Shown here piece after piece: positions 428 through 60,874 of a stretch of DNA of 64,000 bases (position 1 is its first letter; every line of letters starts with the position of its first letter). The DNA is taken from positions 1 through 64,000 of the IMG/VR virus record IMGVR_UViG_3300046557_000512. One strand, given 5' to 3'. The notes beneath the pieces were generated by a model. That model saw only the letters and a program-made list of their open reading frames with translations. It was not told the DNA's origin and ran no database searches. The position numbers and the translations under genes are program-made. The DNA comes from a virus.

Positions 428-501
428 GGTAGTTCCTTTTCGGCTTTCGTTGTTGGGGTCGAACAGTCTATCTGATTGCGTGTGTGTCGTCTACTATGCA
501 C

Positions 502-1107
502 CTACGCCAAAGACAAGATCATTCCCGCTGCTTGAGCAAATTGTTCGGTCGCGATGCAGGCGGCGATCGCGGCCAGCGCATCGGCCGGGTGCTCAGCTTT
601 CTTCACCACGCATTTGCCCTTGGGGCCGTAGACGATGCCCCAATCGTTCTTCGGGCCGACAGGCCACTCCTGGTCGGGACCGGCCAGCTCCACCGCCCAG
701 CGCACAACGTCCTCTTTGTCGGCGACCTTGTTGCCGACAGACGCCATCTTCACCTCGGTGGGGCTGACCTCATACATCGGGATGGGCAGGCTCGCCATGA
801 GACCGATACAGACTCCATTGCTCAGCGCGCCTCGGGCAGACTGAGCGCCCGACGGCACTTCGCCGGTTGCGACCTTGATGCCGTATTTGGAGATCAGCGC
901 CTGCATGCCCTTGGCGGCAACGCGGGCTCGCGCGACATCCTCGGACGACTTGCGCACCTTCTTGCCTTCCTGGCCAGGCTTCGTCTCGAACAGACCGACC
1001 TTGTGGACCCGCACGATCTTGCGCGTCTCCAGGTCGACGTCGGCTACAGCGTAGCCGGTATTGCTCAGGCTCGGGTCGATGCCGAGCAGGGTGAGGGTCT
1101 TGGTCAT
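502..1107 (-). CDS. RuvC-like Holliday junction resolvase
   Basis: N-terminal LLGIDPSLSNTGYA, catalytic E in ATGEVP, SPTEVK...ADKEDV, C-terminal HPADALAA. Confidence 0.85.
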   Translation of the reverse strand: MTKTLTLLGIDPSLSNTGYAVADVDLETRKIVRVHKVGLFETKPGQEGKKVRKSSEDVARARVAAKGMQALISKYGIKVATGEVPSGAQSARGALSNGVCIGLMASLPIPMYEVSPTEVKMASVGNKVADKEDVVRWAVELAGPDQEWPVGPKNDWGIVYGPKGKCVVKKAEHPADALAAIAACIATEQFAQAAGMILSLA

Positions 1108-1212
1108 TTTTCTACCACGTTTCGGGACCGTCGAGACGGTCGTTGTATTTGGCGATCGCGAAGATAGCGATCCAGAGAGCGAGTGGCGGGCCGATTAATA
1201 CCAGCATGCCCA

Positions 1213-1767
1213 TCAGAACATGCCGGCGCCGGGGAGGGCCATCAGCTCATCGTCCTGCGCTTGGTCGCGCGCGTTGGTGAACGCCTGGGCGAAGCCGCCC
1301 ATCAGGATTCGATGCATGCCGGCGTTGGCCTTGATGATATCCTTCAGGCGGCCGTTGACGTTCGCGACGGTGATCGGCGCCAGGCGCTGGTCGACATCAT
1401 CGGCGAGGTCACCGAACGCATTGATGACGTCGTCCCACTCGAGCTCGATCCACGCCGGGTTGTCCTTGTCGGCGACCGGCTCACCCTTCGGCACGAAGCA
1501 GAACAGAAGGCCCGCCTTCTTGCCCAGGGTGATGCGCTCGACGTCGAACTTGGCCCCGGCCTTGATGGAGATCTTGCGGTAGCCGTCCTTCTCCTTGACC
1601 CAACCCTGCACCAGCTGGGGCAGGGCGACGGTGAAGGGCGCGTTGATGCCGGCGCGACCGAATGCTTTCGCAACCGCGACGAGGTCCGACATGAACGAAC
1701 TGGTCGCGGCGCGGTTGATCTGTTCCTGCGTCGGCGGGGGAGGGGGTGGAGATGAGGCTTTAGCCAT
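1213..1767 (-). CDS. Hypothetical protein
   Basis: ORF in operon orientation; ATG 1767 preceded by GAAGGA; no recognisable motif. Confidence 0.7.
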   Translation of the reverse strand: MAKASSPPPPPPTQEQINRAATSSFMSDLVAVAKAFGRAGINAPFTVALPQLVQGWVKEKDGYRKISIKAGAKFDVERITLGKKAGLLFCFVPKGEPVADKDNPAWIELEWDDVINAFGDLADDVDQRLAPITVANVNGRLKDIIKANAGMHRILMGGFAQAFTNARDQAQDDELMALPGAGMF

Positions 1768-2056
1768 CGCGTCCTTCAACTTTCTCGAATGTTAGCTTCT
1801 GAAGACGGGCAATCTTACGTTCTGCCTTGGCGATCTCATCATCGCGCCACCGGGCTGCGGCCGCGCGGGCTTCGTCTTCGGTAAGATGAGCTTGCAGGCC
1901 CAACTCCCAATCGCGGCAAGCGGCGATCTCGGTCACCGCTGTTGGCCAATCGGGATCATATTCAACCATCGCCGTTCGCAATCGATTCGTGGACAGCGCC
2001 ATGTTCACAAGGAACATCTCTCGACGCTGTAGCGGCGTTCGGACATCGCAGGTCAC
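1760..2056 (-). CDS. Hypothetical protein
   Basis: Overlaps both neighbouring genes by a few bases, consistent with translational coupling. Confidence 0.55.
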   Translation of the reverse strand: MTCDVRTPLQRREMFLVNMALSTNRLRTAMVEYDPDWPTAVTEIAACRDWELGLQAHLTEDEARAAAARWRDDEIAKAERKIARLQKLTFEKVEGRDG

Positions 2057-4014: not shown

Positions 4015-4180
4015 TACGGACCTCCCGTGCTTCGGTGACGATGCAGGCTAGGCTAACGCAGCCGAGAAGTAGGGCGCCACTCGCCAGGAAATATTGGTGC
4101 TTTCCGACCAAGTGGCAGACCAGACCCGCGGATGCTGCCGCGCCGATCATGCTGCAGATGATCCAGGGGATGTGTTTCAC
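4001..4180 (-). CDS. Small membrane protein (59 aa)
   Basis: Manual translation VKHIPWIICSMIGAAASAGLVCHLVGKHQYFLASGALLLGCVSLACIVTE...; two hydrophobic segments; fills the gap between the sbcD-like and sbcC-like genes. Confidence 0.55.
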   Translation of the reverse strand: MKHIPWIICSMIGAAASAGLVCHLVGKHQYFLASGALLLGCVSLACIVTEAREVRNALR

Positions 4181-5366: not shown

Positions 5367-5402
5367 CAGTCACCTCCCTGATTCGTTGTGCGTGTGTGTT
5401 GT

Positions 5403-5864
5403 TCACTCTGCAATATCGCGCTTGCGACGCTTCTTCAAGGGTGGCGTGATATATTTGTGCTGGAATTTCTCGTAAGGGACGATGCGCGTCGATCTGCCAC
5501 GCCAGTTCGCGCGAGTGCGGACGATCGTCTGGTCGAAGAACATGTCCATCGTCGTGAGCGAGAGGCGCTGAAGCTCCTCGACGACGATCGCCACTACGTT
5601 GATGTCGAGCTTCTGGGCTCGCTGCAAGACGACGGCGTCAACTCCGATGCCGGCGGTGCCTCGCTCAAGCGCTTCGTCGATGCTCTTGGCACCCCCGCGC
5701 CAGATATCGCGGCCCTTCATTTCGATGATCAGCAGCTTGACCCCTGGTGCTTCGGGGTCGATCGCGTTGGGGCGTGTAATTACCTTGCCGACGACACCAG
5801 GTGCTGCACGGATCTCAGCTTCACGCCGCGCATCCTTCAGCAGCGGCTTGAGCAGCCGGTTCAT
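5403..5864 (-). CDS. Hypothetical protein
   Basis: Basic ORF in operon orientation; probable start MNRLL at 5864. Confidence 0.65.
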   Translation of the reverse strand: MNRLLKPLLKDARREAEIRAAPGVVGKVITRPNAIDPEAPGVKLLIIEMKGRDIWRGGAKSIDEALERGTAGIGVDAVVLQRAQKLDINVVAIVVEELQRLSLTTMDMFFDQTIVRTRANWRGRSTRIVPYEKFQHKYITPPLKKRRKRDIAE

Positions 5865-6351: not shown

Positions 6352-6426
6352 GTGAGTCTCGTCGTCATGTGATTTTGATAGCGACGACCAATCGATTCGA
6401 CGATTGGCATATCGATCGATTCGAGC

Positions 6427-7856: not shown

Positions 7857-8800
7857 GCGAATTTTTCCTGTGCTTGGATGAAAGGCTTTGCCCACACCTC
7901 GACGTTGCGGAGGATCGAACCGAACGACAGCTGAGCGCACAGCTCGCTGAAGGCTTTCAGGTCGATGTCGCCGCGGGTCGCGCGAAGATTGGTGGGCTGG
8001 GGAATGGAGGGGTGGCCGAGATCCATCAGTTCGAGCGCAAACTCGAACCGGACCTGAGCTTGGGTGTCGGCGTGGAATTTCTTCAGGCCGCTCCAGGTGC
8101 GGGGCATGACGCCGTGGTGGTGCAGCATGCGCCCCTCCACCGTCGCGATGTTGGCCTGCAGGAACTCGTGAACGTCATCGAACACGGCGAGCATGTCGAT
8201 CGCGCCCTTCTCACCGACGCCCGTCTTGGGCTTCACATTGTCGCCGTCGTCGCCCTGCAGGGCCTTCGCGTGAATGAAAGCCTTCTGGGTGCGGAACTTG
8301 GTGAACTCGTGGAAGTTGGCCGCGGTGCATTTGCGATCGATCTTGTGATCGTCCCACACGACACCGTTCTCGACGAGCTGGATCCAGTCTTTGTCGCCGG
8401 TGACCAGGATGACCTGATCGCCCATGCGCAGCGCGCGTCGCGTCATGATGGCGGCGAGATCGTCCGCTTCCATGTTGCCCGCGATCAGCTGGGGCATGCC
8501 GAGGTAATGAAGTGCGCGAACCAATAGGCTCTTTTGCGCCTTGTAGCGCTCGCGATCCGCGACCTTCTCGGGGGTGTCGTCGCGGGTGCCCTTGTAATCA
8601 GCGAAGCGCTCGTAGCGCCAGCTGCGACCGTCCCACAGGGTGACCGGCCGCGATATGGAGCTCTCGAGGATCTTGCGGATCGTCCCAAGCGCGCCATAGA
8701 TCGCGGTGGTCTCCTGTGAGCCGGCGGTGAGACGCTTACCCTTTCGGGCCGAGGCGGCGTAACCGATAGAATTGCCGTCGATGTAGGTCCGAAGGGTCAT
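7853..8800 (-). CDS. 5'-3' exonuclease / T4 RNase H-like flap nuclease
   Basis: YIDGNS, DYKGTR, EADD, TGDKDW and ALQGDDGDNV...GVGEKGA motifs. Confidence 0.9.
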   Translation of the reverse strand: MTLRTYIDGNSIGYAASARKGKRLTAGSQETTAIYGALGTIRKILESSISRPVTLWDGRSWRYERFADYKGTRDDTPEKVADRERYKAQKSLLVRALHYLGMPQLIAGNMEADDLAAIMTRRALRMGDQVILVTGDKDWIQLVENGVVWDDHKIDRKCTAANFHEFTKFRTQKAFIHAKALQGDDGDNVKPKTGVGEKGAIDMLAVFDDVHEFLQANIATVEGRMLHHHGVMPRTWSGLKKFHADTQAQVRFEFALELMDLGHPSIPQPTNLRATRGDIDLKAFSELCAQLSFGSILRNVEVWAKPFIQAQEKFA

Positions 8801-8817
8801 GTGTGTCATTCACCATG

Positions 8818-8858
8818 CAAAGGGGGCGAGGCTGGGTCGCTTAATTGACCTCGCCCCC
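8818..8858 (-). terminator. Probable intrinsic terminator after ssb
   Basis: GGGGGCGAGG...CCTCGCCCCC stem followed by TTT on the minus strand; large loop. Confidence 0.45.
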
Positions 8859-8899
8859 AACACGATCGCCGACAAGGAGCCGGCCGGCGATCGCACTAC

Positions 8900-10006: not shown

Positions 10007-10078
10007 TCCTTGTTGTGTTGTGTGCTATGCACCGGTTGAACGTCAGATACTCTTGGCTTTTGCTCGCAACGGGTGGCT

Positions 10079-10594
10079 TTACGTCGCTGCGGGTGCGTCG
10101 TCGGTGACGCCAGTCCGCGCCATGGACGCAATGCGGCGCTGCCGATAATCTTCGGCTGTCGTCCGCGCGTTCTGCACGGTCATGCTGCCCTGCATCTGCG
10201 CGCGCGTCATGTGCCCCATGTTGGTGATCATCTCGGATCGGGTGCGGAACGCGAACATCGCGGCCTTACAAACGGTCTCGATCTCCTGGGCATCGATGAG
10301 CCAGCCGGTCACCTGCCGCACCTGGGGATCGAGATCGACCAGCTCTTTCACGAGATCAGCCGTGGCCTTCTCGCCGGCGGCCGCGAGCTCGCCGCGGATC
10401 CGCTTTGCGGTTGCGGCGCGCATCGTCTTGTCGAGCAGCTTGACCTTGCCCAGCTGTTTCTCGGACCCGGCGTGCTTGATGCTGTAATAGGCGCACATCT
10501 GAGTTTGCGTGCGCATCGCCTCGTTGAGATCGTCGAGGCCACCGTCGACCTCTTGAAGGAACTTGTCGACGTCGATGAATTGGTCAAGTTGCAA
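10079..10594 (-). CDS. UvsY-like recombination mediator (putative)
   Basis: Helical 171-aa protein between the polymerase and SSB genes, near recA; size and context match UvsY-like proteins. Confidence 0.5.
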   Translation of the reverse strand: MQLDQFIDVDKFLQEVDGGLDDLNEAMRTQTQMCAYYSIKHAGSEKQLGKVKLLDKTMRAATAKRIRGELAAAGEKATADLVKELVDLDPQVRQVTGWLIDAQEIETVCKAAMFAFRTRSEMITNMGHMTRAQMQGSMTVQNARTTAEDYRQRRIASMARTGVTDDAPAAT

Positions 10595-10635
10595 TGGGGT
10601 GATTCCTTATTGTGTGTGTGTCGTATACCATGCAC

Positions 10636-14046: not shown

Positions 14047-14585
14047 AGGAGCTCCAGGACGGGGCCGGCGTAGCGTGCGCGACCCATTGAGATGAGAAAG
14101 GAAGCCTCGCGGCGAACCGCGCGCATCGAATAGCTTTCAGTGTGTTGGCGATGCTCGCGAAGTTCCGCAGCCAGGTCGTCAAGCGTCGCGGGTGAACTTC
14201 TCAGACGACCGACGACAATGCCGAGATTGCGTGACAGCGTCGCGAGTGCGTTGCGGTCGCAGGTGCGAGGGTCAATCTTGTCGCGACCACAGCGCGCTGC
14301 TGTCGCTTCGTGCGTCGCGTCGCGGTAATCATGCGCGAGACCGACCGCGATCAATGACTCATCTCGCAGCGCACGCTTGCGCGTCGCTCGCTCGCCGCGG
14401 GTCAGCCAGGCGTGGCTCATCGGCTTGCCTTCGGCGTCGTTGAAGCGGTCAAGCAACATGATGACCTTGGGGCGCAGGTCCGCCACGCGATCTTGGCAAC
14501 CGACGCGCGCGGGACAGCCTTGGCAGGTTGGGGTCTTGTGGTCGTAGGCGATCATCGAGCCAAAACAACCGGGTGGGCTTTGCAT
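14043..14585 (-). CDS. Hypothetical protein with Cys cluster
   Basis: PGCFGS...CQGCPARVGC putative Zn site; C-terminal winged-helix-like segment. Confidence 0.65.
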   Translation of the reverse strand: MQSPPGCFGSMIAYDHKTPTCQGCPARVGCQDRVADLRPKVIMLLDRFNDAEGKPMSHAWLTRGERATRKRALRDESLIAVGLAHDYRDATHEATAARCGRDKIDPRTCDRNALATLSRNLGIVVGRLRSSPATLDDLAAELREHRQHTESYSMRAVRREASFLISMGRARYAGPVLELL

Positions 14586-14622
14586 GTGTGTCACTTACCA
14601 TGCGCGAGCATAAGAGAGAAGC

Positions 14623-14654
14623 AAAAAATGGGCGGCCCCTTTCGAGACCGCCCG
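14623..14654 (-). terminator. Intrinsic terminator after the cobS-like gene
   Basis: Minus strand GGGCGGTCTC-GAAA-GGGGCCGCCC followed by ATTTTTT. Confidence 0.7.
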
Positions 14655-15973: not shown

Positions 15974-16067
15974 TCTAAACTCCTCGTTACCGTCTCTTGC
16001 GGTGATTCTCAGGTAGCAGCTTTTTGAGCGGCTGTGAATGGGTGTTATCTACTATGCATAAAAGCCA

Positions 16068-17330: not shown

Positions 17331-18638
17331 CTAGCTCCTCAAAATCCGTGCGAGTTCGCGACGAGCGTCCCGCAGCATCTGTTCGACCTCCGAAACACCG
17401 ACGTTCAATTCGCCCGCAATTTCGTCGACCGACTTCTTGAGCTTCTTCTGCATGAAAAGAGCGCGTCTGAGGGTGGGATCGAGCATCGCCAGCGCATCCG
17501 TCATCGTGACGTTGCGGTCGCCATCCTCATCGCTGCCGGCAGGCTCGTCATCATCGCGGTCGCCTTGGTCATTTCCAGACCCAGACGATCCGCCGCCGCA
17601 GTTATCCTGTGGACCGTCGTCGCCATCTCCCTCATCAGCGCCGTCTTGCCCATCGTCCGTGTCGTCAGCATCATCCGATTCGGTGCCGGCGCCGTCATCA
17701 TCGCTCTGGTCATCGCCAGCTGGCTCACCGTCGTCAGGCTCACCGCCTTCATCAGACGCATCGCCTTCGTCATCATCGCCCCCTTCGCTGTCATCACCTT
17801 CGTCTTCGCCGTCAGCGCCGGGCTCAGTGCCAGGCTCGTCGTCATCGTTCGGCTGCGTGTCGTTCTCGGCATCGTCCTCGCGCTCGCCTTGGCCGTCGCC
17901 GTCGCCCTTCTGGGGCTCGTCGTCCTGTTCGGGCTCATCATCCTGATTGTCGTCACTGGGGGGCGGGGGAGGAGGGGCGGGAGGAGCCGGCGGTGGCGGG
18001 GGAGGGGGTGGAGGCGTGAGAGCCTTGTCGAGCGCGAGGACGCACGCCAGCACGTCGTCATAGGTTTCCATCGCCTGGATCTGCGTGCCGAAGCCCGGCA
18101 GGCGATCGAGCAGCGGCTTCATGTGTGGCCAATAGGCGTTGCGGTCCATCAGATCGATGAAGACCTTCTGGCCTCCTAGCGCGCGCATTGTCGGCACGAG
18201 AAGCACCGCGGCGATGTGTGACGGGTCTTTGGCCTCGATCGCCTTGTCAACGCCTGGCTGGATCAAAAGCGGGATCCAGTTCACATACATCCGCTCCAGA
18301 TTGTCTTTGGTGCCGGGCAGGTCGCGCGGCAGCATCTTCTCGAGGCGGATATCCTCGAAGATATTGGCCAGTTTGGCCCGCGAGTTGTCATTGGGGATAC
18401 GCTTGAACGGCGTATAGAAGATGTGGCCACACTCGTGATCGACATAGCCCTGGAGCGCGTCGATCAGCATCTGCGACGGCTCGTCGGGGATCTCGGGGAG
18501 ATTGAGGTGCGAGACCTTGCCCGTGCGCTTGTCGGCCGCGACGTAAGGTGTGACACCGCGGAAGGTGACCTTGACGCCCCGTCGTGTCAGCATGCTGACG
18601 GTGCGCTTTAGCGCCTCCTTCCTGATACTCGTTTGCAT
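17331..18638 (-). CDS. CobT-like N-half (HExxH domain, acidic linker) ending in a sigma-70 region-4-like HTH
   Basis: GYVDHECGH and NIFEDIRLE motifs, poly-Pro and D/E/G linker, C-terminal DALAMLDPTLRRALFM...SVDEIAGELNVGVSEVEQMLRDARRELARIL; GAGGAG RBS before ATG 18638. Confidence 0.85.
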   Translation of the reverse strand: MQTSIRKEALKRTVSMLTRRGVKVTFRGVTPYVAADKRTGKVSHLNLPEIPDEPSQMLIDALQGYVDHECGHIFYTPFKRIPNDNSRAKLANIFEDIRLEKMLPRDLPGTKDNLERMYVNWIPLLIQPGVDKAIEAKDPSHIAAVLLVPTMRALGGQKVFIDLMDRNAYWPHMKPLLDRLPGFGTQIQAMETYDDVLACVLALDKALTPPPPPPPPPAPPAPPPPPPSDDNQDDEPEQDDEPQKGDGDGQGEREDDAENDTQPNDDDEPGTEPGADGEDEGDDSEGGDDDEGDASDEGGEPDDGEPAGDDQSDDDGAGTESDDADDTDDGQDGADEGDGDDGPQDNCGGGSSGSGNDQGDRDDDEPAGSDEDGDRNVTMTDALAMLDPTLRRALFMQKKLKKSVDEIAGELNVGVSEVEQMLRDARRELARILRS

Positions 18639-18681
18639 GTCGCTCCTCGTGCGTGTGTGTTGTTCTATATGCACTCACTAG

Positions 18682-18724
18682 CACAAAGCAGCGATCGCAC
18701 AAGCTGGCGATCGCGGCTTTTGTG
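18682..18724. terminator. Hairpin, possible terminator upstream of the cobT-like operon
   Basis: CACAAAGCAGCGATCGC...GCGATCGCGGCTTTTGTG imperfect inverted repeat. Confidence 0.45.
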
Positions 18725-18991: not shown

Positions 18992-19588
18992 TTAGATCGC
19001 GGTCACTGCCTCTTTGAGGGCACGGCGCTGCTTGGGATCCAAGCCATTTTCGACCAGCTCGGGTCGACTTTCCCGAATGACATCCATGATGCCGAGCTCG
19101 GGGATAGTCAGCCAGCGTCGGATCGCCCGCGAGTCCGCGGCCGCTTCCTTCAGCACGCCGTAGTGGTCGCGCGACAGATTCGACAACGGGATGCCGGCGG
19201 CGGCTTGCAGGTCGTCGAAGACCATCTGTTCGTCGTCAGCCATACCCTTAGCCAGGTTCGCCTTCGAGCCCACCAGAATGCGCAGGAAGTCGATGTTGGG
19301 ATATCGCTGCTCAAGCACGGCCAGCAGGAACTCAGCCGCGTCGAGCTTGATGAGCCGAACGAAGTCCGGCACACGCTCGATCGGGATCGGGGCTCGGCCG
19401 CTCGCCATGTGGCTGATCACGACAGACGACTTGTAGCCGAGGTTCTTCGCCAGGGCTCGCTGGCTGATGCCAGAGTCCCTGTCGAGTTTCTCGACGCCGT
19501 CCTTGAACATCCTCGACGCTTTGGTGTGCGCCAGGGGATAGTCGTCGTTCTGTGCTGCGGTCGGCAGCTTGATAACACTTGCGCTCAT
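18992..19588 (-). CDS. XRE-family HTH transcriptional regulator (candidate repressor)
   Basis: ISQRALAKNLGYKSSVVISHMASGRAPIPIERV is a typical XRE HTH; located next to the replicon. Confidence 0.8.
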   Translation of the reverse strand: MSASVIKLPTAAQNDDYPLAHTKASRMFKDGVEKLDRDSGISQRALAKNLGYKSSVVISHMASGRAPIPIERVPDFVRLIKLDAAEFLLAVLEQRYPNIDFLRILVGSKANLAKGMADDEQMVFDDLQAAAGIPLSNLSRDHYGVLKEAAADSRAIRRWLTIPELGIMDVIRESRPELVENGLDPKQRRALKEAVTAI

Positions 19589-19864
19589 TTTCTTTCTTAC
19601 TCCGTCCAATGTTGTGTAGAACGGTATGCAGGTGTTTGATAGCTGCTTCACACACACCCCGCAAGGGGAGAAATGCGCAAGTCAGTCGCCGCAATTCTGC
19701 GAACGAATAGTGAACACCATGCGCGAGATCGCCGCACGGACGGAGCCCCTTCAGGGGCGGAGCTCCGTTCGGGCGGCGCGGTTAAGAGTCACTGTTTGAA
19801 TCTATTTGTTACAGAGTTAGGGTTGCAATTCGCACGTAATTACAAAGCGCTGCGATGCAACATC

Positions 19865-19995
19865 GTGTTCGATAGACGAACCTTTGTGTGCGATAGACGG
19901 CGGTCTGGTGTTCGATAGACGGGTGCCATTGTGTTCGATAGACGGGCGTGGCGACCCTTCGTGTTCGATAGACGGGCGAATGTGTTCGATAGACG
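19865..19995 (+). repeat. Iteron array 1 (6 x GTGT[T/G]CGATAGACG), probable oriV next to an AT-rich stretch
   Basis: Copies start at 19865, 19886, 19908, 19931, 19961 and 19982, mostly 21-23 bp apart; AT-rich stretch at about 19790-19850. Confidence 0.9.
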
Positions 19996-21150: not shown

Positions 21151-21251
21151 GTGTGCGATAGACGAATCAAGGCTTAGCCGTTTTGTGTGCGATAGACGAA
21201 TCTTTTGTGTGCGATAGACGAGCAGGCGTTAGCCGATGTGTTCGATAGACG
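21151..21251 (+). repeat. Iteron array 2 (4 copies) over the repA upstream region
   Basis: GTGT[G/T]CGATAGACG at 21151, 21185, 21207 and 21238. Confidence 0.9.
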
Positions 21252-23509: not shown

Positions 23510-23663
23510 GCGTGCGCGACCCTACAGCCTTCGCCAGGCGGCGAGCAGCACTCACACGGCCGACGATGCCAGCCGGCGAACAGGCTGAAGGACCAATGCT
23601 CGCCGGTGCCGAAGCATCGGAAGCAAAGGCCCCACAGTGCGAAGAGTGCATGTGTTATGAACA

Positions 23664-25013: not shown

Positions 25014-25080
25014 TCGTGTCCGCTGCCGTTCGTGTGAGTGTGTGTCATTGACTATGCACTAGCCCGAATCGACCAAGGGG

Positions 25081-26665: not shown

Positions 26666-26721
26666 GTTTGTCACTCCTTTGTGTGTGTCGTCTACCATGC
26701 ACCGCGAGCAGCGCAACCGGT

Positions 26722-29416: not shown

Positions 29417-29439
29417 GGAAACCTCGTGTGTGCCGGACA

Positions 29440-29535
29440 CTATGCACTACGGGCGTAGTGGTGCCGTTGGGTTTGGGGAGCGGTGCGCTCCGGGATCAGC
29501 AGCGCGAGGAGCGCCGCGAGGATTGTGCGGCGCAT
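29440..29535 (-). CDS. Possible 31-aa peptide with hydrophobic N-terminus
   Basis: MRRTILAALLALLIPERTAPQTQRHHYARSA; TGATG coupling to the holin stop codon. Confidence 0.35.
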   Translation of the reverse strand: MRRTILAALLALLIPERTAPQTQRHHYARSA

Positions 29536-30271: not shown

Positions 30272-30507
30272 AAGCTGAATTTCTCCATGCAGGTTATCCT
30301 ATGCATGTGTGTTGAATAGCATGCAGTCTACCACGGGTAGTGGAGCTGTGCAACGGCAACGCAACGTTTGGATTGGTGCGAGGTCATCGTGCGGGCTACC
30401 TTGAAAACCGGGTATGTGCATGGTAGATAACACAACTGCGTGTTATACTCAACAGCGGTTGCACGCCGTCAACGCGTTTCACCACCCATCGGAGTTCACC
30501 AAACAAA

Positions 30508-37283: not shown

Positions 37284-37329
37284 CCCCGCATTATAGGTTA
37301 TTGCATGTGTGTTGTCACCTATGCACTAG
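37284..37329 (-). promoter_or_regulatory. Sigma70-type promoter with overlapping operator motif; leaderless start
   Basis: GTGACA (37318-37313), 17 bp, TATAAT (37295-37290), 6 nt, ATG; repeated motif at 37308-37326. Confidence 0.75.
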
Positions 37330-40986: not shown

Positions 40987-41360
40987 TGGGGCACGCCGTA
41001 TGTGTAAGCGGCCAAGGGCGTGAACGGCCCCGAGAGGAGCCGCGGCGCGGTTACCCCGCCTTCGATCGCGTGAATGAAGCGGTCAGAGCCGAGGCAGACA
41101 CCGACATGGGCGCCAACACCCTCGAGCCGGAACGTCACCAACGACATCGGCGTGCCCATCGGCACACGCTGCCAACGCGCTTCATTGGCGCTGATCAATG
41201 CAGCCACCTCTTCGTTCGTGCCAGGCGACGTGAAGTCCGGCACGACGATCCCGGCACGACGGAACATCTCGATCGCCAGGCCGTAGCAATCATAGCTGTT
41301 CGGGCCGCGCGCGCCACGCTCAAACGGCTTGCCGAGAAGGTCGATATAGGGCGGGATCAT
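40983..41360 (-). CDS. NlpC/P60 tail tip protein (lambda K-like)
   Basis: GARGPNSYDCYGL, HVGV, FIHA. Confidence 0.88.
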   Translation of the reverse strand: MIPPYIDLLGKPFERGARGPNSYDCYGLAIEMFRRAGIVVPDFTSPGTNEEVAALISANEARWQRVPMGTPMSLVTFRLEGVGAHVGVCLGSDRFIHAIEGGVTAPRLLSGPFTPLAAYTYGVPQ

Positions 41361-41399
41361 CGCGCAATCATAACACGCATGCGTGTTGTTTGCCATGCG

Positions 41400-46471: not shown

Positions 46472-46819
46472 CTATGCCGGGGCCGGCTGATCCTTCGGGG
46501 TTGGGTTGAGTTTTCGCTGGAGCTCCAGGAACTTCGCTTCGTCGAAGCCCTTGATGACGACCGCCGGGGAGCCGACCTGCAGCTTCAGGGCTGCGAACAG
46601 TTCCTTGGCGCCCTCTCCGCTCTGGCCGGCGATTCCGACCTGGAGATTCATCTGGGCTTGCTCTGCCTGGAGCCGGTCGATCTGCTTGTTGGCGGACCAG
46701 AACATCACCAGGGGCATCTGCATGACTTGTATGTGTGTTAGTCCGTATGCACCGGCGACGCGCCAGAAGAAGAACGGGAGATCTAGCTCTGCGAGCTGGT
46801 CTCCCCCAGCACGTTTCCC
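46472..46819 (-). CDS. Tail assembly chaperone GT, C-terminal frame reached by -1 frameshift
   Basis: The -1 frame is open from GGGAAAC (46819-46813) to 46472: KRAGGDQLAELDLPFFFWRVAGAYGLTHIQVMQMPLVMFW... Confidence 0.85.
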   Translation of the reverse strand, partial: GKRAGGDQLAELDLPFFFWRVAGAYGLTHIQVMQMPLVMFWSANKQIDRLQAEQAQMNLQVGIAGQSGEGAKELFAALKLQVGSPAVVIKGFDEAKFLELQRKLNPTPKDQPAPA

Positions 46820-47803: not shown

Positions 47804-47873
47804 TTATCAGCTCTCCTGGGAAAATATGCAGCCAGCATCATAGCACGCATGTGTGTTATTTGCCATGCACTAT

Positions 47874-51150: not shown

Positions 51151-51182
51151 AGAAAAGGGGCGATCCCTTTCGAGACCGCCCC
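51151..51182 (-). terminator. Intrinsic terminator after the major capsid gene
   Basis: GGGGCGGTCTC-GAAA-GGGATCGCCCC-TTTTCT. Confidence 0.75.
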
Positions 51183-51226
51183 TCATTCTAGCAAACTGCA
51201 TGCGTGGCGTCTACCACGCACACCGA

Positions 51227-52147: not shown

Positions 52148-52252
52148 CGGACTCTCCTAAAAATTTTGTCGAAATTTGTTATCGAGGCATCATCCTACAC
52201 GAAGCTGCATGTGTTGTAAATACCACACACAGCCCGTGCAGAAATGTCACAC

Positions 52253-53122: not shown

Positions 53123-53191
53123 GCAACCTTTACTCTAAATTGTGTAGGTGCATGGATAATGCCACACATGCGGCATTTTTGCAACAGCGGC

Positions 53192-54808
53192 TTATGCGCC
53201 GGGCGGCTTCTCGTTGCCTGCGCCCTTGTTGTTCTCGCCCTGCTTACCCTTCTTGCCAGGGATTCCGCCGGCCGGCGCCGGGACACCAGGGCGGCCTGGG
53301 AGAAGCGTGGCTGGATCGGGCTCGACGAGCCAATCATTCTCGATGTCGTCCGCGACCTTCTTCGCCTCCTCGGCCGTGATCTGCGGATACATCTTCTTGG
53401 CCATGCGCGTCATCTGGAGCTTGCGCAGTTCCTTCGGTGCATTCATCACCGCCAGGCGCTGGGCGTTATCCATCTCGTCGGCGAGATTGCGCACATCGAA
53501 GGTCTGAGGATAGCTCACGCAGTCCTCGAAGTCCTCGAGCTCCTGGAGCGCGCCATGCCAACCTTCGACCAGGCGCGCGATGTTCTGCTCTGCGCCCGCC
53601 AGCGCCATCGCCTTGGCAACTAGCATCGCATTCAAGCGCTCGAAATCGTATGCCTTGGCGACACCGGAGCTATTGTCGATACCGACTGAATTGTCCTGCT
53701 TGGTCCGCTCGCCGGCCATGCCGATCGAGTGATAGATCTCGTCGATGATCTTGCTGACCACGGTGACGATGATGCCGGCCTGGCGCGGATCCGGCGACAG
53801 AAATTCAGGCGCTGAACCACCCTCGGCGTTGTAGGCGAACACACGTTTGGTGCCCATCTCATACATCTGCCGCTGGGTGCCAACCTTGCCGCTGTCGTCG
53901 TTGTCGGTCTCGAGCAGCCCCTGGTAGGGGATCGCGAGCTGACTGAAGGTCTGATCCTGGATGATCGCGTCGAGATTCGACAGGTAATTCGCGGCCGCGC
54001 GGTCGAGATACGCGGTATCCTCGATCAGCGCCGGCGAGCTGTAGAGCTCCTCGGACGGATTGTGATCGACCACAACGACGGGCACGGCGCCGAGCTGGTG
54101 CTCGCGGCTGTCCTCGGCCACGATCTGAGCGATGCGATCGCCATTACTCGCCTTGACGATCTCGATCACCGCGGTGAACTCTGGCGTCCAGAGACGGAAG
54201 CGCGGCGTTGATGCACCGCTCGACAGGGGGCTGGAATCGTCGCGCTTGGTTTCGAGCATCAAGAACCAGCTGAGCTCGCCGTCCTCGTCATACGCGAAAT
54301 CGAGCGCGTCGATCGGCGAGATGACGAAGGCGTAAACGCGCCCCTTGGACTTCTTCTCGTCTTCCTTGGTGACGATGTTCTCGGGGAAGTTGTTGTCGAC
54401 GACCACATAGCAGCGGCCGAAGGTCGACGACTTGCGCGAGATGGTGTCGATCAACGCATCGATCGGACGCTTCATCAGCGTCGAGTTCTTCCAGAAGCGC
54501 TTGAGGTTTTCGGAAGCGTCTTCCTTGCGGGCGATGTCGCCCTTCAGGACATACTTGTTGACCAGGTTCACGACTTCGCGGGTGTGCGGGAATCGGTAGG
54601 CGCGCTTCTTGCGCGCGTTGAACTCTTTGGTCCCCTCCTTGTGGTAGCGCCACAGGTTCGTGTCGAACCACGACCGGCCGCCCTGGTAGGTCGCGTCAAG
54701 GAAGCGCCAGTGGTCGATCTTCTCCGCGTAGTCGGGGTGACGTCGATCGACCAAGGAGAGCAGCTCCTCGGGCTTAGCGGCCTTCAGTTGATCGAGAGTC
54801 AGGGACAT
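53192..54808 (-). CDS. Portal protein
   Basis: RHPDY...YQGG, LGAVPVV, SSGVAKAYDF, YPQTFD; follows terL. Confidence 0.9.
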   Translation of the reverse strand: MSLTLDQLKAAKPEELLSLVDRRHPDYAEKIDHWRFLDATYQGGRSWFDTNLWRYHKEGTKEFNARKKRAYRFPHTREVVNLVNKYVLKGDIARKEDASENLKRFWKNSTLMKRPIDALIDTISRKSSTFGRCYVVVDNNFPENIVTKEDEKKSKGRVYAFVISPIDALDFAYDEDGELSWFLMLETKRDDSSPLSSGASTPRFRLWTPEFTAVIEIVKASNGDRIAQIVAEDSREHQLGAVPVVVVDHNPSEELYSSPALIEDTAYLDRAAANYLSNLDAIIQDQTFSQLAIPYQGLLETDNDDSGKVGTQRQMYEMGTKRVFAYNAEGGSAPEFLSPDPRQAGIIVTVVSKIIDEIYHSIGMAGERTKQDNSVGIDNSSGVAKAYDFERLNAMLVAKAMALAGAEQNIARLVEGWHGALQELEDFEDCVSYPQTFDVRNLADEMDNAQRLAVMNAPKELRKLQMTRMAKKMYPQITAEEAKKVADDIENDWLVEPDPATLLPGRPGVPAPAGGIPGKKGKQGENNKGAGNEKPPGA

Positions 54809-54854
54809 GCGGCCAGTTTAGCACAATGCATGCGTGTTGGCTACCATGCACCAA

Positions 54855-56108: not shown

Positions 56109-56113
56109 AGCGA

Positions 56114-56677: not shown

Positions 56678-56967
56678 AGGATCGCCCCTACAGCCTGCAG
56701 ATCAACGGAGTTCGCGGAGTGCATGTTAGTAATATACCACACACACCGCGGAAATGGAACTTGCTCGCGCTGCGAGCGATCACCGGGGAGTGTTCGATCA
56801 CCCCTCGCGCATATACGCGTGCGTTGCGCTAGGCGTGCGTGCATGCGCGTATACGCGTGAAAGAGATTCCTAGAATCTAAGAATCTAGAATCAGTATTAT
56901 ATTCACTTCGTTCATATAATGATGACGAGGTCATTTTTTTATCAATTTGGACAGTCATGTTGACCTA

Positions 56968-57255
56968 TTAGATTGTCGGCCTGAAAATCGCATATCCCGC
57001 GGTGGTCGCACTGTAGGTGCGCAAAGAGCGCTTCCGGCGAGTCACGAGCTTGTCCTCGCGAACCAGGCCATGCGCGGCGAGATGCCGAAGGCTGCAGAGC
57101 ATGGCTCCTCGGGTGGTGTTCGGCGCGACGAGGTCGATCAGCTGCATCACGTCGAGCAGGGTGCCGTCGGGGTTTCGCCGGATCAGCGTCTGCATGATCG
57201 CGGTCTGCTTCGGCGTCATCTTGGGCGGCAGGCGCTTGGCGTCCAGCTGCATCAT
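56968..57255 (-). CDS. Winged-helix DNA-binding protein
   Basis: TPKQTAIM..NPDG..LDVMQL...TRGAMLCSLRHLAAHGLV...YSAT..G. Confidence 0.7.
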   Translation of the reverse strand: MMQLDAKRLPPKMTPKQTAIMQTLIRRNPDGTLLDVMQLIDLVAPNTTRGAMLCSLRHLAAHGLVREDKLVTRRKRSLRTYSATTAGYAIFRPTI

Positions 57256-58181
57256 GGCAGCACCAGGGGCTTGGTCGGATCCTGCGCGTCGAAGGCGCGA
57301 AGCGGCAGCACCGCCGGCAGCGACCGGCCGGTCTCAGGGTTCTGCCAGACGCCGTAGAGCGGGCTCGCAAGCGTCATTTGCTGCAGCTGCCCCAGGCAGT
57401 CGCGCATCGACATGTTCGCGACGCGCCGCTCCCCTACTCCGCCCAGTGATTTGCCGGTCTTTTCGAGGCTCGAGTTCTTGTAATAGAAATCCTTGGTCAG
57501 GCGCTCGATCACCGCGCGCTCGCCCTCGGGCAGCTCCATCCATTCAGCCAGGATCGCTTCAAGATCGGCGGGATCGGCCTTGAACGTCGATCGGAAGAAG
57601 CGGATGCCGACGTCGTACTTGTTCGAGCGCATCGGCTTGACGAACTGGAAGCCTGCGCGGTGCGCGAACTGGTTGTATTTCGACATCGAGGATTGGATCT
57701 CGATGTAGCGTTTGCCCTCCATCCGTGCGGCCAGATTGGTGAAGCGGTATGCGAGACCAGCGCCGCGATACATCGTGTCGACCACGACGCGCGCGACCAC
57801 CGACATGTTCGCGTTGATCCACTTCATCCGATATTGATTGGTGATCTTATTGTCCTGGCCGGTGGGCTTCAGCTTCGGAAACAGGACATGGCGTTCCTTC
57901 AGAAGAAGCTTGGGGCTCGCCATCACCAACACGCCGACGAGCTCGTCGCCGAGCTTCAACGTGAAGTGGTGGCTTCCCGCCGGCAGCGTGCCGTGCTGCT
58001 TGTAGTGGAGGCCCTCGAGCACGCGCCAATCCTCGATCGTGCCGCGCTGGACGGTCATGTCGTCGAGCAACGAGAGCTTGGGGCGCGCGATGCCGCGCTC
58101 GAACACCCAAGGTGCTTCGAGCCTTGCAGATTCGGGGTTGTCAGCGATCTGCTTGATCGCTAGATGTGTGTCATTGACCAT
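57252..58181 (-). CDS. GNAT-fold acyltransferase
   Basis: LHY, VARVVVDTMYRGAGLA acetyl-CoA motif, MSKYNQFAHRAGF. Confidence 0.85.
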   Translation of the reverse strand: MVNDTHLAIKQIADNPESARLEAPWVFERGIARPKLSLLDDMTVQRGTIEDWRVLEGLHYKQHGTLPAGSHHFTLKLGDELVGVLVMASPKLLLKERHVLFPKLKPTGQDNKITNQYRMKWINANMSVVARVVVDTMYRGAGLAYRFTNLAARMEGKRYIEIQSSMSKYNQFAHRAGFQFVKPMRSNKYDVGIRFFRSTFKADPADLEAILAEWMELPEGERAVIERLTKDFYYKNSSLEKTGKSLGGVGERRVANMSMRDCLGQLQQMTLASPLYGVWQNPETGRSLPAVLPLRAFDAQDPTKPLVLP

Positions 58182-58818
58182 GCACACGCTCGATAACAAT
58201 CCGCTCGTGAAAGCGCTTCGTGATTTTGAGGCTCGGTGCGAGCTCATCGACGAGGTCACTGTGCGTGGTCGCGACGATGAGGGTCTTTCCATTTGCACGC
58301 GCCGCCTTGGCGAGGTTCCAGGCGACAATCTTCGCCGTCGTGCGATCCAGGACCGCACCAAACTCGTCAGCGACCCAGACATCAGCGCCGCATTCGATCA
58401 GCTTGGCGAGGCGGTATCGATATTTCTGCCCGTCGCTGAGCTCTTGGGGCTTGCGAATATAGAGATACGCGTCGGAGAGCCCGGCGATCGAGAGCAGCCG
58501 GATCGCTTCAGCCATGTTATCGGGACACAGCTGGTCTATGATCGCAACGTCGTTGCACAGCTCGACTTCGTCTATGTTCGCAACCTTCTGGCCAGCAGCC
58601 TCGAGGGCTGCGCTCGTCTCGCGAAGGAGCACAGATTTGCCGGCGCCCGACTGTCCGTTGATGTAGACGACCTCACCAGGCTCAACATCAAACTCCACAC
58701 CATCGAGCACGACAAACTCGCGGTCCTCGAGGCCGAGTCCAAACGCTTCCGCTACCTTGATGACCCGGTCGCTGCGCGTCACGCGGGTCTGGAATGACTT
58801 GTTCAAAGTGATCTTCAT
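58171..58818 (-). CDS. Stand-alone ABC ATPase
   Basis: GQSGAGKS, LSDGQ, VADE, ATTH; no permease nearby. Confidence 0.88.
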   Translation of the reverse strand: MKITLNKSFQTRVTRSDRVIKVAEAFGLGLEDREFVVLDGVEFDVEPGEVVYINGQSGAGKSVLLRETSAALEAAGQKVANIDEVELCNDVAIIDQLCPDNMAEAIRLLSIAGLSDAYLYIRKPQELSDGQKYRYRLAKLIECGADVWVADEFGAVLDRTTAKIVAWNLAKAARANGKTLIVATTHSDLVDELAPSLKITKRFHERIVIERVHGQ

Positions 58819-59252
58819 TCGGCGCCCTCATCGATGAGGCTGTCGTAGCCCATCGCCTTGTCCTGGATGTGGGTTTTGAGCAGGTCACAGCCGCCGAGGA
58901 ACATCGCCAAGTGCTCCTCCAGGCCCGGCGAGAAGATCGTCTCGACATACCCCATGAAGCGCTCGTTGCTTTCGGCGCCCGCGACGATCGCGACGTGCCG
59001 TATCTCGCCCGATCGCGCGCGGTCGGCGAGCGTCTCGAGCACTTGCGCAGTCATCTCGCGTGCTTCGCGGCGCTCCTCCTCGCCGGTCATGACCGGGCCG
59101 CCGTAGATCGGCAGCACGTTGCTCTCGAGCGGCTCCTCATCGGGTTCAGCGTCGACCAACATGATGACGACCTTTTGCCCAGGGGCAGGCTGAAGAATAT
59201 CCGCGGCGAGCTCGCGCAGCGCCTCGAGATCGTGCAGTTCAGGCATGCGCAT
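58815..59252 (-). CDS. Hypothetical acidic protein
   Basis: Overlaps both neighbouring genes. Confidence 0.65.
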   Translation of the reverse strand: MRMPELHDLEALRELAADILQPAPGQKVVIMLVDAEPDEEPLESNVLPIYGGPVMTGEEERREAREMTAQVLETLADRARSGEIRHVAIVAGAESNERFMGYVETIFSPGLEEHLAMFLGGCDLLKTHIQDKAMGYDSLIDEGAE

Positions 59253-59922
59253 TGAGCCATCCTTCGAATGCGTCGAGGCCAGTCTTGCCCGTCTGATCCT
59301 CGATCTTGGCGATGAAGCGCTTGAACAACGGCTCCATCCTGACCGGCACCGCCTTGAAGCCGAATACCTTGGAGATCGGCGTCATCGCGTCATCGACCGC
59401 GGCGACCTTGCCGGCAGTCTCGGCATCTTGCGCATCGATCTCGGCATCGAGATCGCCGGCGAGTCCGCCCATGTTCATTGCCCCCAGGTCCTCGGTCAGG
59501 AATCCAAGTTCATGATCATCGAGGCCCAGGGACGCGAGATCGACGTCGTCGGCGTTCGCCAGGCGCTCAAGTTCCTCGGCGAGAAAGCCGCTGTCGTATT
59601 CGGTGCCTTGGGTCTTGTTGTCGGCGATACGCGCGGCGTCAGCCTGGTTCTTGCTGAGGTGCTTCGCCCATTTCACCGGGAACTCGACGTGACCCATCTT
59701 CAGCAGGCACTGGAAGCGCTTGTGCCCGGCGATGATGATCCCGTCGATGTCTACGATGATCGGGTTGAACAGACCATATTCGCGGATCGACTTGATCGTC
59801 GCCTCGACGTCTGCACTGGAGTGGATCTTGTTGTTCTTGGCGTAGGGGTGAATGCGGTCGGCCGTCCACATCTCGGTGGGCAGCAACTGCAGGCCGTAGG
59901 GGTCATGTGTGGCGATCACCAT
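59239..59922 (-). CDS. ParB/Srx N-terminal domain protein
   Basis: IHPYAKNNKIH...SIREYG..NPIIVD..IIAGHKR. Confidence 0.85.
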   Translation of the reverse strand: MVIATHDPYGLQLLPTEMWTADRIHPYAKNNKIHSSADVEATIKSIREYGLFNPIIVDIDGIIIAGHKRFQCLLKMGHVEFPVKWAKHLSKNQADAARIADNKTQGTEYDSGFLAEELERLANADDVDLASLGLDDHELGFLTEDLGAMNMGGLAGDLDAEIDAQDAETAGKVAAVDDAMTPISKVFGFKAVPVRMEPLFKRFIAKIEDQTGKTGLDAFEGWLNAHA

Positions 59923-59926
59923 GCAC

Positions 59927-60070
59927 TCAATACCTCATCAGGTCGTCAACGCCGGCTGGCTCGACCTCTTCGAAAAACTCGCCTGCATCGCAGCCGTTAC
60001 AGGGACGAACCTTGCCGGCGAACACGCAGTCCGAGCACTCATCGAACTTCAGTTCGATATCCTCATCCAT
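59927..60070 (-). CDS. Small Cys4 protein (47 aa)
   Basis: Manual translation MDEDIELKFDECSDCVFAGKVRPCNGCDAGEFFEEVEPAGVDDLMRY; GGAGG RBS. Confidence 0.65.
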   Translation of the reverse strand: MDEDIELKFDECSDCVFAGKVRPCNGCDAGEFFEEVEPAGVDDLMRY

Positions 60071-60722
60071 CGTCCACCTCCTTACTCAGAATGTGCATGA
60101 GCGCGTCGCCGGCGTTGGTGAGCTCGTCGGCTTGGGTGAACCCCTGGGCCTTCATGACACCGCCGATCAGCGCGCGGGCGCGAGCAGCATCAGCCAGCGT
60201 CAGCTTGAAGCGGAGAATCTCGTGCGTCTTGGGGTCCTTGGTCGGCGCGTCCGTCACCGTGTCCATGTCGCCCGCCTCCATTGGGGCGTCGTCCAGGTCC
60301 AAGCCAGAGATGTCGACGCTCAGCGAAGCGGTGAAGGCCGCGACATCGTGGTCGCTCCAGGGCATCACCGCGGTGATGTCGATATCGTCGAGGTCCTCGA
60401 GCAACGAGGCCATCTTGAGCGCATCGTCGTGACCGTAGCGCGCGTTATCGAGCAGGCCGATCTCCATCGCACGGGCGTCGTCGATCTTGCCGAGGTTCCA
60501 GATCGGCACCTCGCTGAAATCGAGATGAACCGCCTGCTCGACACGGTGCCAGCCACCGATCGACTGCACCGATCCGTCATCGAGTTCGCGCACCAGGACG
60601 GGTCGAAAGAACCCGTGGCGCCGAAGCGATTCACGGATCTTCAGCTCCGCCTCATGGCTGACCACGTTGGTGTTCCAGGGATTGGGGCGAATTTCCCTGG
60701 GGTCTATTGTGTCATTACGCAT
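60063..60722 (-). CDS. Second ParB/Srx-like (IbrB-like) protein
   Basis: IRPNPWNTN...SLRRHGFFRPVLVR...IGGWHR. Confidence 0.85.
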   Translation of the reverse strand: MRNDTIDPREIRPNPWNTNVVSHEAELKIRESLRRHGFFRPVLVRELDDGSVQSIGGWHRVEQAVHLDFSEVPIWNLGKIDDARAMEIGLLDNARYGHDDALKMASLLEDLDDIDITAVMPWSDHDVAAFTASLSVDISGLDLDDAPMEAGDMDTVTDAPTKDPKTHEILRFKLTLADAARARALIGGVMKAQGFTQADELTNAGDALMHILSKEVDDG

Positions 60723-60874
60723 GCACTAGCGCCGGTGAGGTTTTCATGCCCGCCAGTATAGGCGATCTGCCTACGGAAATCCAGCGTTCTTTACCGAAAT
60801 CATCTACACAAAACGCAGGGTAGATGACACACGCACAGTTGCAAACCTACACGCTTTTTGGTAGAGTATTACCG

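Follow-up and report, generated by a model that had tools for sequence, protein, structure and literature searches.

A dispersed 24-bp motif and its candidate XRE repressor in an SSU5-like phage-plasmid

Why would a phage genome carry dozens of copies of one short sequence, nearly all of them at gene junctions and most of them pointing the same way as the genes around them? The question is raised by IMG/VR virus record IMGVR_UViG_3300046557_000512, a single contig of 80,301 bp (62% G+C), whose first 64 kb (64,000 nucleotides) we call the window. The window encodes a siphovirus-type structural module, and the element also has plasmid functions: RepA (RPA family), which is encoded between iterons, and ParA. 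An initial annotation had noticed about 25 quasi-palindromic boxes (TGYRT-N8-AYRCA) and proposed that a single protein from the element uses them to silence the whole lytic genome during plasmid maintenance. We found that these boxes are part of a 24-bp asymmetric quasi-palindrome, TGCATRGTAGAYRACACACAYGCA. We consider it moderately likely that this motif forms a stoperator-like network of dispersed operators for an XRE-type helix-turn-helix (HTH) repressor, which would silence the lytic genome; we infer both the binding and the repression from sequences and structural models.

The motif and its placement

The loose pattern TGYRT-N8-AYRCA has 15 matches in the window, as compared to 0.72 expected, and the maximum in 100 shuffles was 3. 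We built a position matrix from these 15 matches. With it, we identified 29 sites in the replicon of 80,301 bp (24 are within the window) and no sites in 10 first-order Markov random genomes of equal composition. The window also contains weaker copies at 19607–19630, 52206–52229, and 56720–56743, so the initial count of about 25 was right. The repeat family that had been described is real, but the box was drawn too short: the information content covers 24 contiguous positions, with none outside, and the most invariant blocks are TGCAT and ACACACA. The dyad-related halves (TGYRTG, eight bases, CAYRCA) differ systematically, with TGCATR on the left and CACACA (reverse complement TGTGTG) on the right, and the motif has a directional center. 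Below the matrix threshold, there is also a truncated motif-like sequence, TAGTGTTCATAACACATGCA, just past the DnaB stop codon in the 154-bp spacer before the primase gene (23647–23666, minus strand).

Two complete relatives have 50 and 47 copies of the motif. These genomes and the present one are about 90% coding (91% for the present genome), and the sites are at gene junctions in almost all cases: 28/29 here and 47/50 and 45/47 in the relatives. Most sites have the same orientation as both flanking genes (21/29, 42/50, and 43/47), and just 2 of the 29 sites here have the opposite orientation. As had been stated, the orientation flips at the plus-strand units at 30416 and 60813, with an exception at 53148. 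The initial annotation also placed a box at 46734 inside coding sequence. Our gene calls put that site at a junction, and the sole site deep in coding sequence is at 67278, outside the window. Genes for replication, lysis, packaging, and structural proteins are all covered by sites, while the repA-iteron-XRE island is spared and the accessory region has few of them. In the lytic part, 22 of 82 genes have the motif within 90 nt upstream, versus 1 of 24 accessory genes (p = 0.02), a distribution that would fit a silencer.

Is the motif a feature of the element or of its hosts? We scanned three Sphingomonadaceae genomes that contain related elements with a strict pattern, for which a reversed-pattern control gave 0 matches. 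Of 66 strict matches, 65 were inside the element. Specifically, all 13 matches in a Novosphingobium genome (3.3 Mb) were within one 101-kb stretch; all 8 matches in Sphingomonas sp. NFR04 (4.8 Mb) were within one 30-kb stretch; and 44 of 45 matches in a Sphingomonas metagenome-assembled genome (3.7 Mb) were on contigs C8, which is the element, and C126, which is probably the missing part of that element. The initial annotation had suggested comparing the motif's frequency to that in host DNA. The two are not equal: the boxes are one family that is borne by the element and not by the host.

We also compared the proteome of the element to those of four complete relatives (G001, G004, G006, and G007). 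G007 is as close to our element as G004 and G006 are (70% identity for the terminase and 69% for the capsid protein), and nearly all core genes are common. G007 has just 3 ACACACA heptamers in 103 kb, versus 27–83 in the others. Nothing comparable to the motif turned up in G007, only about ten loose upstream elements that contain GCGAATC. At about ten gene starts in G007 (L092–L097, e.g., at 76388, 79023, 16264, and 20426), this looser element is followed by a -10.

The sites occur in three contexts: over the -35 of σ70-type late promoters, directly 5' of ribosome-binding sites (RBS) within operons, and on start codons. A -10-like hexamer (at least 4/6, TAnnnT) starts 3–9 nt past the core at 7/29 sites, as compared to 12/525 control windows. 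At the promoter sites, the central hexamer of the motif (TAGACG, GTGACA, TGGCAA, or TAGCCA) is exactly 17 bp upstream of the -10, and all of the 17-bp pairs that had been listed are present (TAGACG/TAGACT, GTGACA/TATAAT, TGGCAA/TATGAT twice, TAGACG/TAGAAT, and TAGCCA/TAAACT). For the fibre gene, the portal gene, and the gene at 40983–41396, the ATG is 6 nt past the -10, so these messages would be leaderless. An ATG 6–7 nt past a good -10 and without an RBS is seen at 37281–37297, 41358–41374, 54806–54822, and 60839–60877 (the fibre gene, 40983–41396, the portal gene, and the helicase gene, respectively), and this layout is also found in relatives, including the motif-free G007.

At most sites, the RBS and ATG come directly after the motif, which leaves no space for a -10 or a start point. 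Upstream genes often end at stop codons within the motif. The start-codon sites of the initial annotation are also correct: the ATG is at motif positions 4–6 in the sites at 58161, 59902, and 60702, and at positions 20–22 in the site at 8796. Because the first three are the start codons of a ParB-ParB-ATPase operon, the motif itself is translated (as MRNDTI at 60702, MVIATH at 59902, and MVNDTH at 58161), and these three sites are the same in relatives. With the ATG at positions 4–6, the motif must be more than just a promoter. The gene downstream of the CobS terminator also starts within a motif, at positions 20–22 of the site at 14581, as the peptide GCFGS, upstream of the next ATG, is conserved in G001 and G004.

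A candidate regulator and how the motif might act

The candidate repressor is encoded between the primase and CobT-N genes. An XRE gene is at the same place in G001, G004, and G006, and the proteins are 44–54% identical; the motif variants differ between these genomes as well. Full-length orthologues are present in all of the motif-bearing genomes for which the region is available (G001, G003, G004, G006/G014, and G013). Also, a profile search for the XRE family identified 12 IMG/VR loci, and all 12 carry 3–13 co-oriented copies of the motif within 10 kb. No orthologue was found in the motif-free G007. Among five motif-free genomes that are more distant, there was no orthologue in G010 or G012, and there were only weak matches to the HTH in G008, G009, and G011.

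The XRE protein is similar to a family of transcriptional regulators (phrog_8, E = 6.6e-4). Its family comprises 74 clusters, nearly all of them environmental, and the HTH is almost invariant (49 homologues). A search of the profile against the sequences in PDB gave weak matches (best E = 0.095). The structural model, with a predicted local distance difference test (pLDDT) score of 86.8, has an N-terminal HTH-like domain and an all-helical C-terminal half. According to Foldseek, the best matches for the N-terminal domain are λ repressor-operator complexes, with a weak E value of 4.6e-3 and a TM-score to the target of 0.65–0.70. The C-terminal half had no structural match, and we found no Pfam match beyond the HTH and no S24 peptidase domain. 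As a homodimer, the protein had a predicted score of 0.74, versus 0.00 for the best control, with the C-terminal domain as the interface. This mark was reached by 20/30 solved homodimers and 1/23 single chains. The homodimer runs agreed on at least 84% of contacts, with a partner pLDDT of at least 81. These models support a dimer, which would fit a quasi-palindromic site.

The initial annotation named three candidates for the silencing protein, and the XRE protein is the sole one that has both a predicted DNA-binding fold and a phyletic distribution that matches the motif's. The winged-HTH protein (56968–57255) is also present in the motif-free G007, and the protein at 62437–62715 has no detectable DNA-binding similarity. 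Searches of PDB sequences with these two proteins gave no matches. We also considered the CobT-N-like protein (17331–18638, minus strand), as amino acids 360–433 match ECF sigma region 4 and "positive control sigma-like factor," both below the cut-offs. G001, G004, G006, and G007 all retain this sigma-4-like C-terminus. The more distant G008 has an unsplit CobT gene (a 790-amino acid frame), and there the sigma-like match ends at amino acid 375. We rejected CobT-N as the motif binder because its C-terminus is conserved to the last residues in the motif-free G007 and so does not track the motif.

If the motif is an operator, then a dimer of the XRE protein, which models like λ cI, would bind the 24-bp sites and silence the lytic genome for as long as the element persists as a plasmid (in relatives, as an integrated prophage). 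About a quarter of the sites are over the -35 and the spacer of host σ70-type promoters (for tail, fibre, portal, capsid, and lysis genes), and there the bound protein would block RNA polymerase. At the leftward early promoter, it would sit just downstream of the start point. At the junctions within operons, it might be an orientation-dependent roadblock to elongation, like the stoperators of mycobacteriophage L5. The repA-iteron-XRE island has no strong site, and it ends in a hairpin plus a copy of the motif; this could keep it insulated and expressed. In front of the XRE gene is a conserved promoter-like sequence, and just past that sequence is a weak variant site (19607–19630), a candidate autoregulatory operator.

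The comparison with G007 bears on what the motif may have been added to. At the orthologous late junctions, G007 has TTGGCT-17-TATACT, TTGCCA-17-TATATT, TTGCCA-17-TATTAT, and TTGACA-17-TATAAC, and no motif. Because these are ordinary σ70 promoters, this lineage would transcribe these genes with the host polymerase alone. Also, two early junctions that have the motif before the RBS here are tight and promoterless in G007. In the XRE-bearing clade, the motif looks to have been laid over promoters and operon junctions, as an operator would be, and does not appear to be needed for transcription. The proposal of silencing by one protein thus holds up in part: there is one element-specific family of sites that covers replication, lysis, packaging, and structural genes, and of the three candidates the XRE protein matches it best.

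Several observations weigh against an operator network with the XRE protein as its repressor. We did not find σ70-type promoters for most of the 30-kb replication block. At one junction (14581), a strong terminator is followed by the motif in three genomes, which would be natural if the motif itself were a promoter. The site at the helicase-parA operon adjoins the -35 without overlapping it, a geometry that is typical of activation. Because the directional center of the motif resembles a -35 hexamer, part of its conservation may reflect contacts with RNA polymerase. For the phyletic contrast we depend mainly on G007, the one close genome that lacks the motif; the other motif-free genomes are more distant, and the motif-positive genomes form one clade. 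Two other small proteins share the phyletic pattern of the XRE protein: the one at 62437–62715 and a 70-amino acid protein outside the window. Finally, the XRE protein's matches to Pfam are below the curated cut-offs (21.8 bits for HTH_31, where the cut-off is 27, and 16.5 bits for HTH_3, where it is 23).

Could the motif instead be a positive element, that is, a phage-specific promoter or the site of an activator (an XRE-like dimer or some other protein) that brings host RNA polymerase to the lytic genes? It would either replace the -35, like the MotA boxes of T4 middle promoters, or flank it, like λ CII sites. At the 7 of 29 sites that have a good -10, the motif spans about -42 to -19, with its center exactly 17 bp from the -10. 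Most copies are 6–45 nt 5' of start codons, as in short-leader promoters, and some of the copies in G004 precede hairpins. The replication block, the terminator-then-motif layout, and the helicase promoter also fit. On the other hand, family scans of about 65 proteins of the element found no RNA polymerase or sigma factor gene, and the only sigma-4-like domain, on CobT-N, is also found in the motif-free G007. At most sites the RBS is directly 3' of the motif, so a -10 and start point would have no place, and at three conserved sites the start codon is in the 5' part of the motif, which cannot serve the genes that it overlaps. G007 does without the motif at the same late junctions, and several of the promoters that are embedded in the motif are near consensus by themselves (e.g., GTGACA-17-TATAAT). 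The terminator-then-motif argument loses force, as in G007, too, a terminator precedes a gene that has no visible promoter. Still, because we did not find the replication promoters, because the terminator-then-motif layout is conserved, and because the helicase-parA site looks like an activator's, we give an activator or promoter-specificity role a real, if minor, share of the probability. We would call a positive element unlikely.

A mixed role as repressor and activator is possible. In a dual-purpose module, a cI-like dimer would silence genes and, at some sites, drive their transcription: in the prophage, it would occlude the late promoters with the -35 embedded in the motif and act as a roadblock in operons, and it would activate the helicase-parA operon from a position next to the -35, as λ cI does at PRM. 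In the furthest form of this reading, the protein would substitute for -35 recognition at the replication genes, which lack a visible σ70 promoter. This would amount to a system like sigma appropriation, in an alphaproteobacterial phage-plasmid, that is built on an XRE protein. We view a dual-purpose module as rather improbable.

A role at the level of RNA is more doubtful still. The element is strand-specific, most of its copies either precede the RBS directly or lie on the start codon, and its invariant ACACACA tract is unstructured and CA-rich. So it might be a site in the 5' end of the message for a translational repressor or a processing nuclease, or a ribosome-recruiting enhancer of the CA-rich kind. 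However, the motif would be absent from the leaderless messages, as it is upstream of their start points, and antisense copies are conserved. There is no base-pair covariation; the motif is a quasi-palindrome of a type to which dimeric DNA-binding proteins bind, and its presence follows that of a predicted HTH protein; and we did not identify an RNA-binding protein.

Least likely is a structural DNA signal, such as packaging or recombination hot-spots, Chi-like orientation signals, or the dispersed N15-type centromeres that the initial annotation offered as an alternative: the orientation flips with two replichore-like gene blocks, a copy is found just after the parA-small gene pair at 64256, and ParB-N genes have copies on their starts, but ParA (63351–63986) and the adjacent 81-amino acid gene are absent from the motif-bearing G006 and were not found on the incomplete G004 contig, RepA is absent from both G004 and G006, signals of the Chi or KOPS type are short and lie mainly within genes whereas the 24-bp element stays out of coding sequence and goes with gene starts, and exceptions in orientation follow the local gene direction (30411). 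We also discarded a hairpin family, as pairing was at the column-shuffled expectation in both registers and in three genomes (the exception is a single copy after the capsid gene); a σ70 promoter with its -10 at motif positions 8–13, as -35-like hexamers were at inconsistent distances of 11–27 nt and nothing upstream was conserved; and sites of the σ54, ECF, or CtrA type, which did not fit in a comparison by eye.

Individual sites and the source replicon

Table 1. The candidate repressor gene and copies of the motif in the window, with the context of each copy.
Coordinates	Strand	Feature	Context
18992..19588	-	XRE-type HTH gene	198 amino acids; candidate motif-binding repressor
477..500	-	motif	Over the -35 (TAGACG, 17 bp, TAGACT); leadered gene start at 427
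5389..5412	-	motif	Directly 5' of the RBS/ATG of the SbcD-like gene; stop codon of the upstream gene is inside the motif
8796..8819	-	motif	Adjoins terminator-like hairpin 8822–8858; two in-frame ATGs of the exonuclease gene are inside the motif
10008..10031	-	weaker motif	5' of the RBS of the gp32-like SSB gene; same junction in G007 has no spacer
10611..10634	-	motif	1 nt past the PolIII-alpha stop codon, 5' of gene 10079–10594
14581..14604	-	motif	25 nt past strong terminator 14630–14653; start ATG at motif positions 20–22
16035..16058	-	motif	61 nt 5' of the CobS-like gene
18650..18673	-	motif	14 nt past hairpin 18688–18717, which ends the XRE unit; directly 5' of the RBS of the CobT-N gene
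19607..19630	-	weak variant	About 6 nt past promoter-like TTGCGG-16-CTATCA (19637–19664), 5' of the XRE gene; same in G001
25035..25058	-	motif	5' of the DnaB RBS; the junction in G007 is 21 nt without such an element
26678..26701	-	motif	Followed immediately by AAGGAG and ATG
29423..29446	-	motif	3' end overlaps the RBS of the lysozyme gene
30302..30325	-	motif	At divergent promoters of the lysis region; -10-like TAGGAT/TAACCT downstream
30417..30440	+	motif	Flipped with the plus-strand unit; then TATACT
37302..37325	-	motif	Over the -35 of GTGACA-17-TATAAT; leaderless fibre gene
41376..41399	-	motif	Over TGGCAA-17-TATGAT; ATG 6 nt past the -10, leaderless
46728..46751	-	motif	4 nt 5' of the ATG of 46472–46723
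47846..47869	-	motif	Over TGGCAA-17-TATGAT; leadered major tail gene
51197..51220	-	atypical, more palindromic copy	Between the capsid-gene stop codon and terminator 51155–51184
52206..52229	-	variant copy (TGTGTG left half)	Then TAGGAT; upstream of the major capsid gene
53149..53172	+	motif	Antisense to the surrounding genes
54827..54850	-	motif	Over TAGCCA-17-TAAACT, leaderless portal gene; G007 has TTGGCT-17-TATACT and no motif
56720..56743	-	degenerate copy without ACACA	5' of terS
58161..58184	-	motif	In a gene overlap; ATPase ATG at positions 4–6, upstream TGA at positions 12–14; kept in G001 and L007
59902..59925	-	motif	Start codon at positions 4–6, RBS upstream of the motif; kept in G001 and L015
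60702..60725	-	motif	Spans about +10 to +33 at the leftward early promoter (TATACT, within 60748–60764); start of a ParB-like gene at positions 4–6
60814..60837	+	motif	Ends 1 nt before the -35 of TTGCAA-17-TAGAGT (60839–60867), the promoter of the leaderless helicase-parA operon

A few of these loci have features of their own (Table 1). At the copy after the capsid gene (51197–51220), positions 7 and 14 of the motif covary across relatives, at that one site. The order after the capsid stop codon (51155–51220, minus strand) is a palindromic motif-like hairpin, a -10-like TAGAAT, and a strong terminator. A transcript from this TAGAAT would begin inside the terminator stem and could escape termination. 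The relatives keep the hairpin and the terminator and do not keep the -10. Several relatives also have antisense copies after the portal gene, some of them with a hairpin and a T-run. A leaderless mini open reading frame of 10 codons (MKTSPALVHA; 60715–60747, minus strand) separates the leftward early promoter from the first ParB-like gene; it ends inside the motif and overlaps the start of that gene.

The replication set of the window includes PolIII-alpha, DnaB, primase, a gp32-like SSB, RecA, RuvC, SbcCD, and CobS/CobT-like proteins. On both sides of the RepA gene (19865–19995 and 21151–21251) are copies of a 14-bp iteron (CGTCTATCGMACAC), ten in all, which are likely to be the plasmid origin. 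The 3' end of the iteron is ACAC, which resembles part of the 24-bp motif. A 290-bp A+T-rich non-coding stretch (56678–56967) precedes terS; with its short GATTCT-type (GATTCTAGATTCT) repeats and alternating CGCGTATA/CGCATGCA tracts, it is a possible packaging site.

From about 60.7 kb to 1 the genes point leftward, from 60.9 to 74.4 kb they point rightward, and a leftward accessory region occupies 74.8–80.3 kb. This last region has -10 elements and leader hairpins of its own. Both here (L068, genome positions 75673–80024) and on contig C8 of G004 (30451, 38711, 42647, and 50585), leader hairpins with an A-GCGG-U loop lie 5' of the RBS of accessory genes. In G004, several of them come directly after a copy of the motif. 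The element also encodes a 552-amino acid protein without a Pfam match; it matches the PHROG "DNA transfer protein," and G001, G004, and G006 lack it.

The probable source of the DNA is a rhizosphere metagenome. The terminase shares about 55% identity with the terminases of SSU5-like phage-plasmids and of Rhizobium phage RHEph10. Nearer relatives (70–88%) are IMG/VR contigs and contigs from Sphingomonas and Novosphingobium genomes. A megablast search with 14 kb of the element found no close DNA relatives among deposited phages. The members of the motif-bearing clade are proviruses or lie inside large host contigs, and the present element has a plasmid replicon. For instance, related elements lie in the middle of host contigs of 580 kb (L065, G013:C2 at 252–354 kb) and 855 kb (L064, G014:C16 at about 65–135 kb), so some members of the clade appear to be integrated or in large replicons and not free plasmids. 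The motif-free G007 has direct terminal repeats and lacks both RepA and the XRE gene. This difference would fit a silencer in the motif-bearing clade.

Comparison with known systems

SSU5-like phage-plasmids are a large group, and in enterobacteria they carry resistance genes. We searched the literature and found nothing on how they silence their lytic genes. In the full-text literature, we found no link between stoperators and phage-plasmids outside of Cluster A, and nothing on SSU5-like prophages of Sphingomonas. For the soil (Sphingomonadaceae) branch, our results offer a testable regulon, with about 30–50 sites per genome and one named candidate protein. With the motif as a clean marker, these elements can also be delimited within the genomes of their hosts, and its variants in each phage could predict immunity groups.

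Which known systems does this network resemble? The candidate's N-terminal domain models as the DNA-binding domain of λ cI, its predicted C-terminal dimerization domain is separate, and one of the sites adjoins a -35, as OR2 does at PRM. Unlike in λ cI, the C-terminal domain has no match, and because the candidate lacks an S24 peptidase domain, we do not expect RecA-driven self-cleavage. The sites also number in the tens and are spread across the genome, instead of forming two clustered tripartite operators, and, unlike in the operators of λ and 434, a distance of about 14 bp separates the two half-sites, which are not alike (TGCATG versus CACACA). The MotA box of T4 is an element near -30 that replaces the -35 upstream of a normal -10, and at some sites the motif takes this place as well. 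However, only about a quarter of the copies have a -10 at the right distance, and the motif-free relative has normal -35 elements. Family scans of the element's proteins showed no relatives of MotA or AsiA.

The phage-plasmid P1 has many dispersed, asymmetric C1 operators for one repressor, and several of them overlap promoters. Ours is likewise a plasmid prophage with dispersed asymmetric sites, several of them over promoters. In P1, the C1 operators are at promoters and not at junctions within operons, and control of the late structural genes is indirect, by way of the Lpa activator. Here, the promoters of structural genes carry the site directly, and there is no evident sequence relation between the two systems.

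Two other repeats from mycobacteriophages are, like our motif, phage-specific and intergenic. The start-associated sequences (SAS) of Cluster K contain the RBS itself, whereas here the RBS comes after the motif. SAS are intergenic repeats that are tied to translation starts, and their function is unknown (PMC4351075). The 17-bp palindromes of Cluster O are present in more than 30 copies, are dyad-symmetric and not oriented with transcription, and approximately a third of the copies lie within genes (PMC4351075). Our motif differs from the Cluster O palindromes in being asymmetric and oriented with transcription.

The closest analogue in behavior, as we read the comparison, is the stoperator network of Cluster A mycobacteriophages. 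These phages have tens of asymmetric sites, mostly oriented with transcription, in short intergenic regions or at start or stop codons, as well as at promoters (PMC6550527; PMC4351075). Stoperator variants differ between related phages along with the repressor (PMC6550527), and some members of Cluster A are extrachromosomal prophages with parABS (PMC6550527; PMC4351075). Our motif is similar in having more than 20 copies (29, 50, and 47 in three genomes) and being all but confined to the element, in being asymmetric with one predominant orientation relative to transcription, in lying at junctions, over start and stop codons, and at the early lytic promoter, and in varying between related genomes. 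The differences are that the site is a 24-bp quasi-palindrome here and 13 bp there; that about a quarter of our sites are merged with the -35 of a late promoter; and that this is an SSU5-like phage with an alphaproteobacterial host. L5 gp71 binds as a monomer, unlike our candidate, which is a predicted dimer with a λ cI-like domain. Stoperator-style silencing has so far been characterized in actinobacteriophages, and these similarities and differences suggest that it arose independently in phages of Gram-negative hosts, where it would use a dimeric cI-like protein and a longer site.

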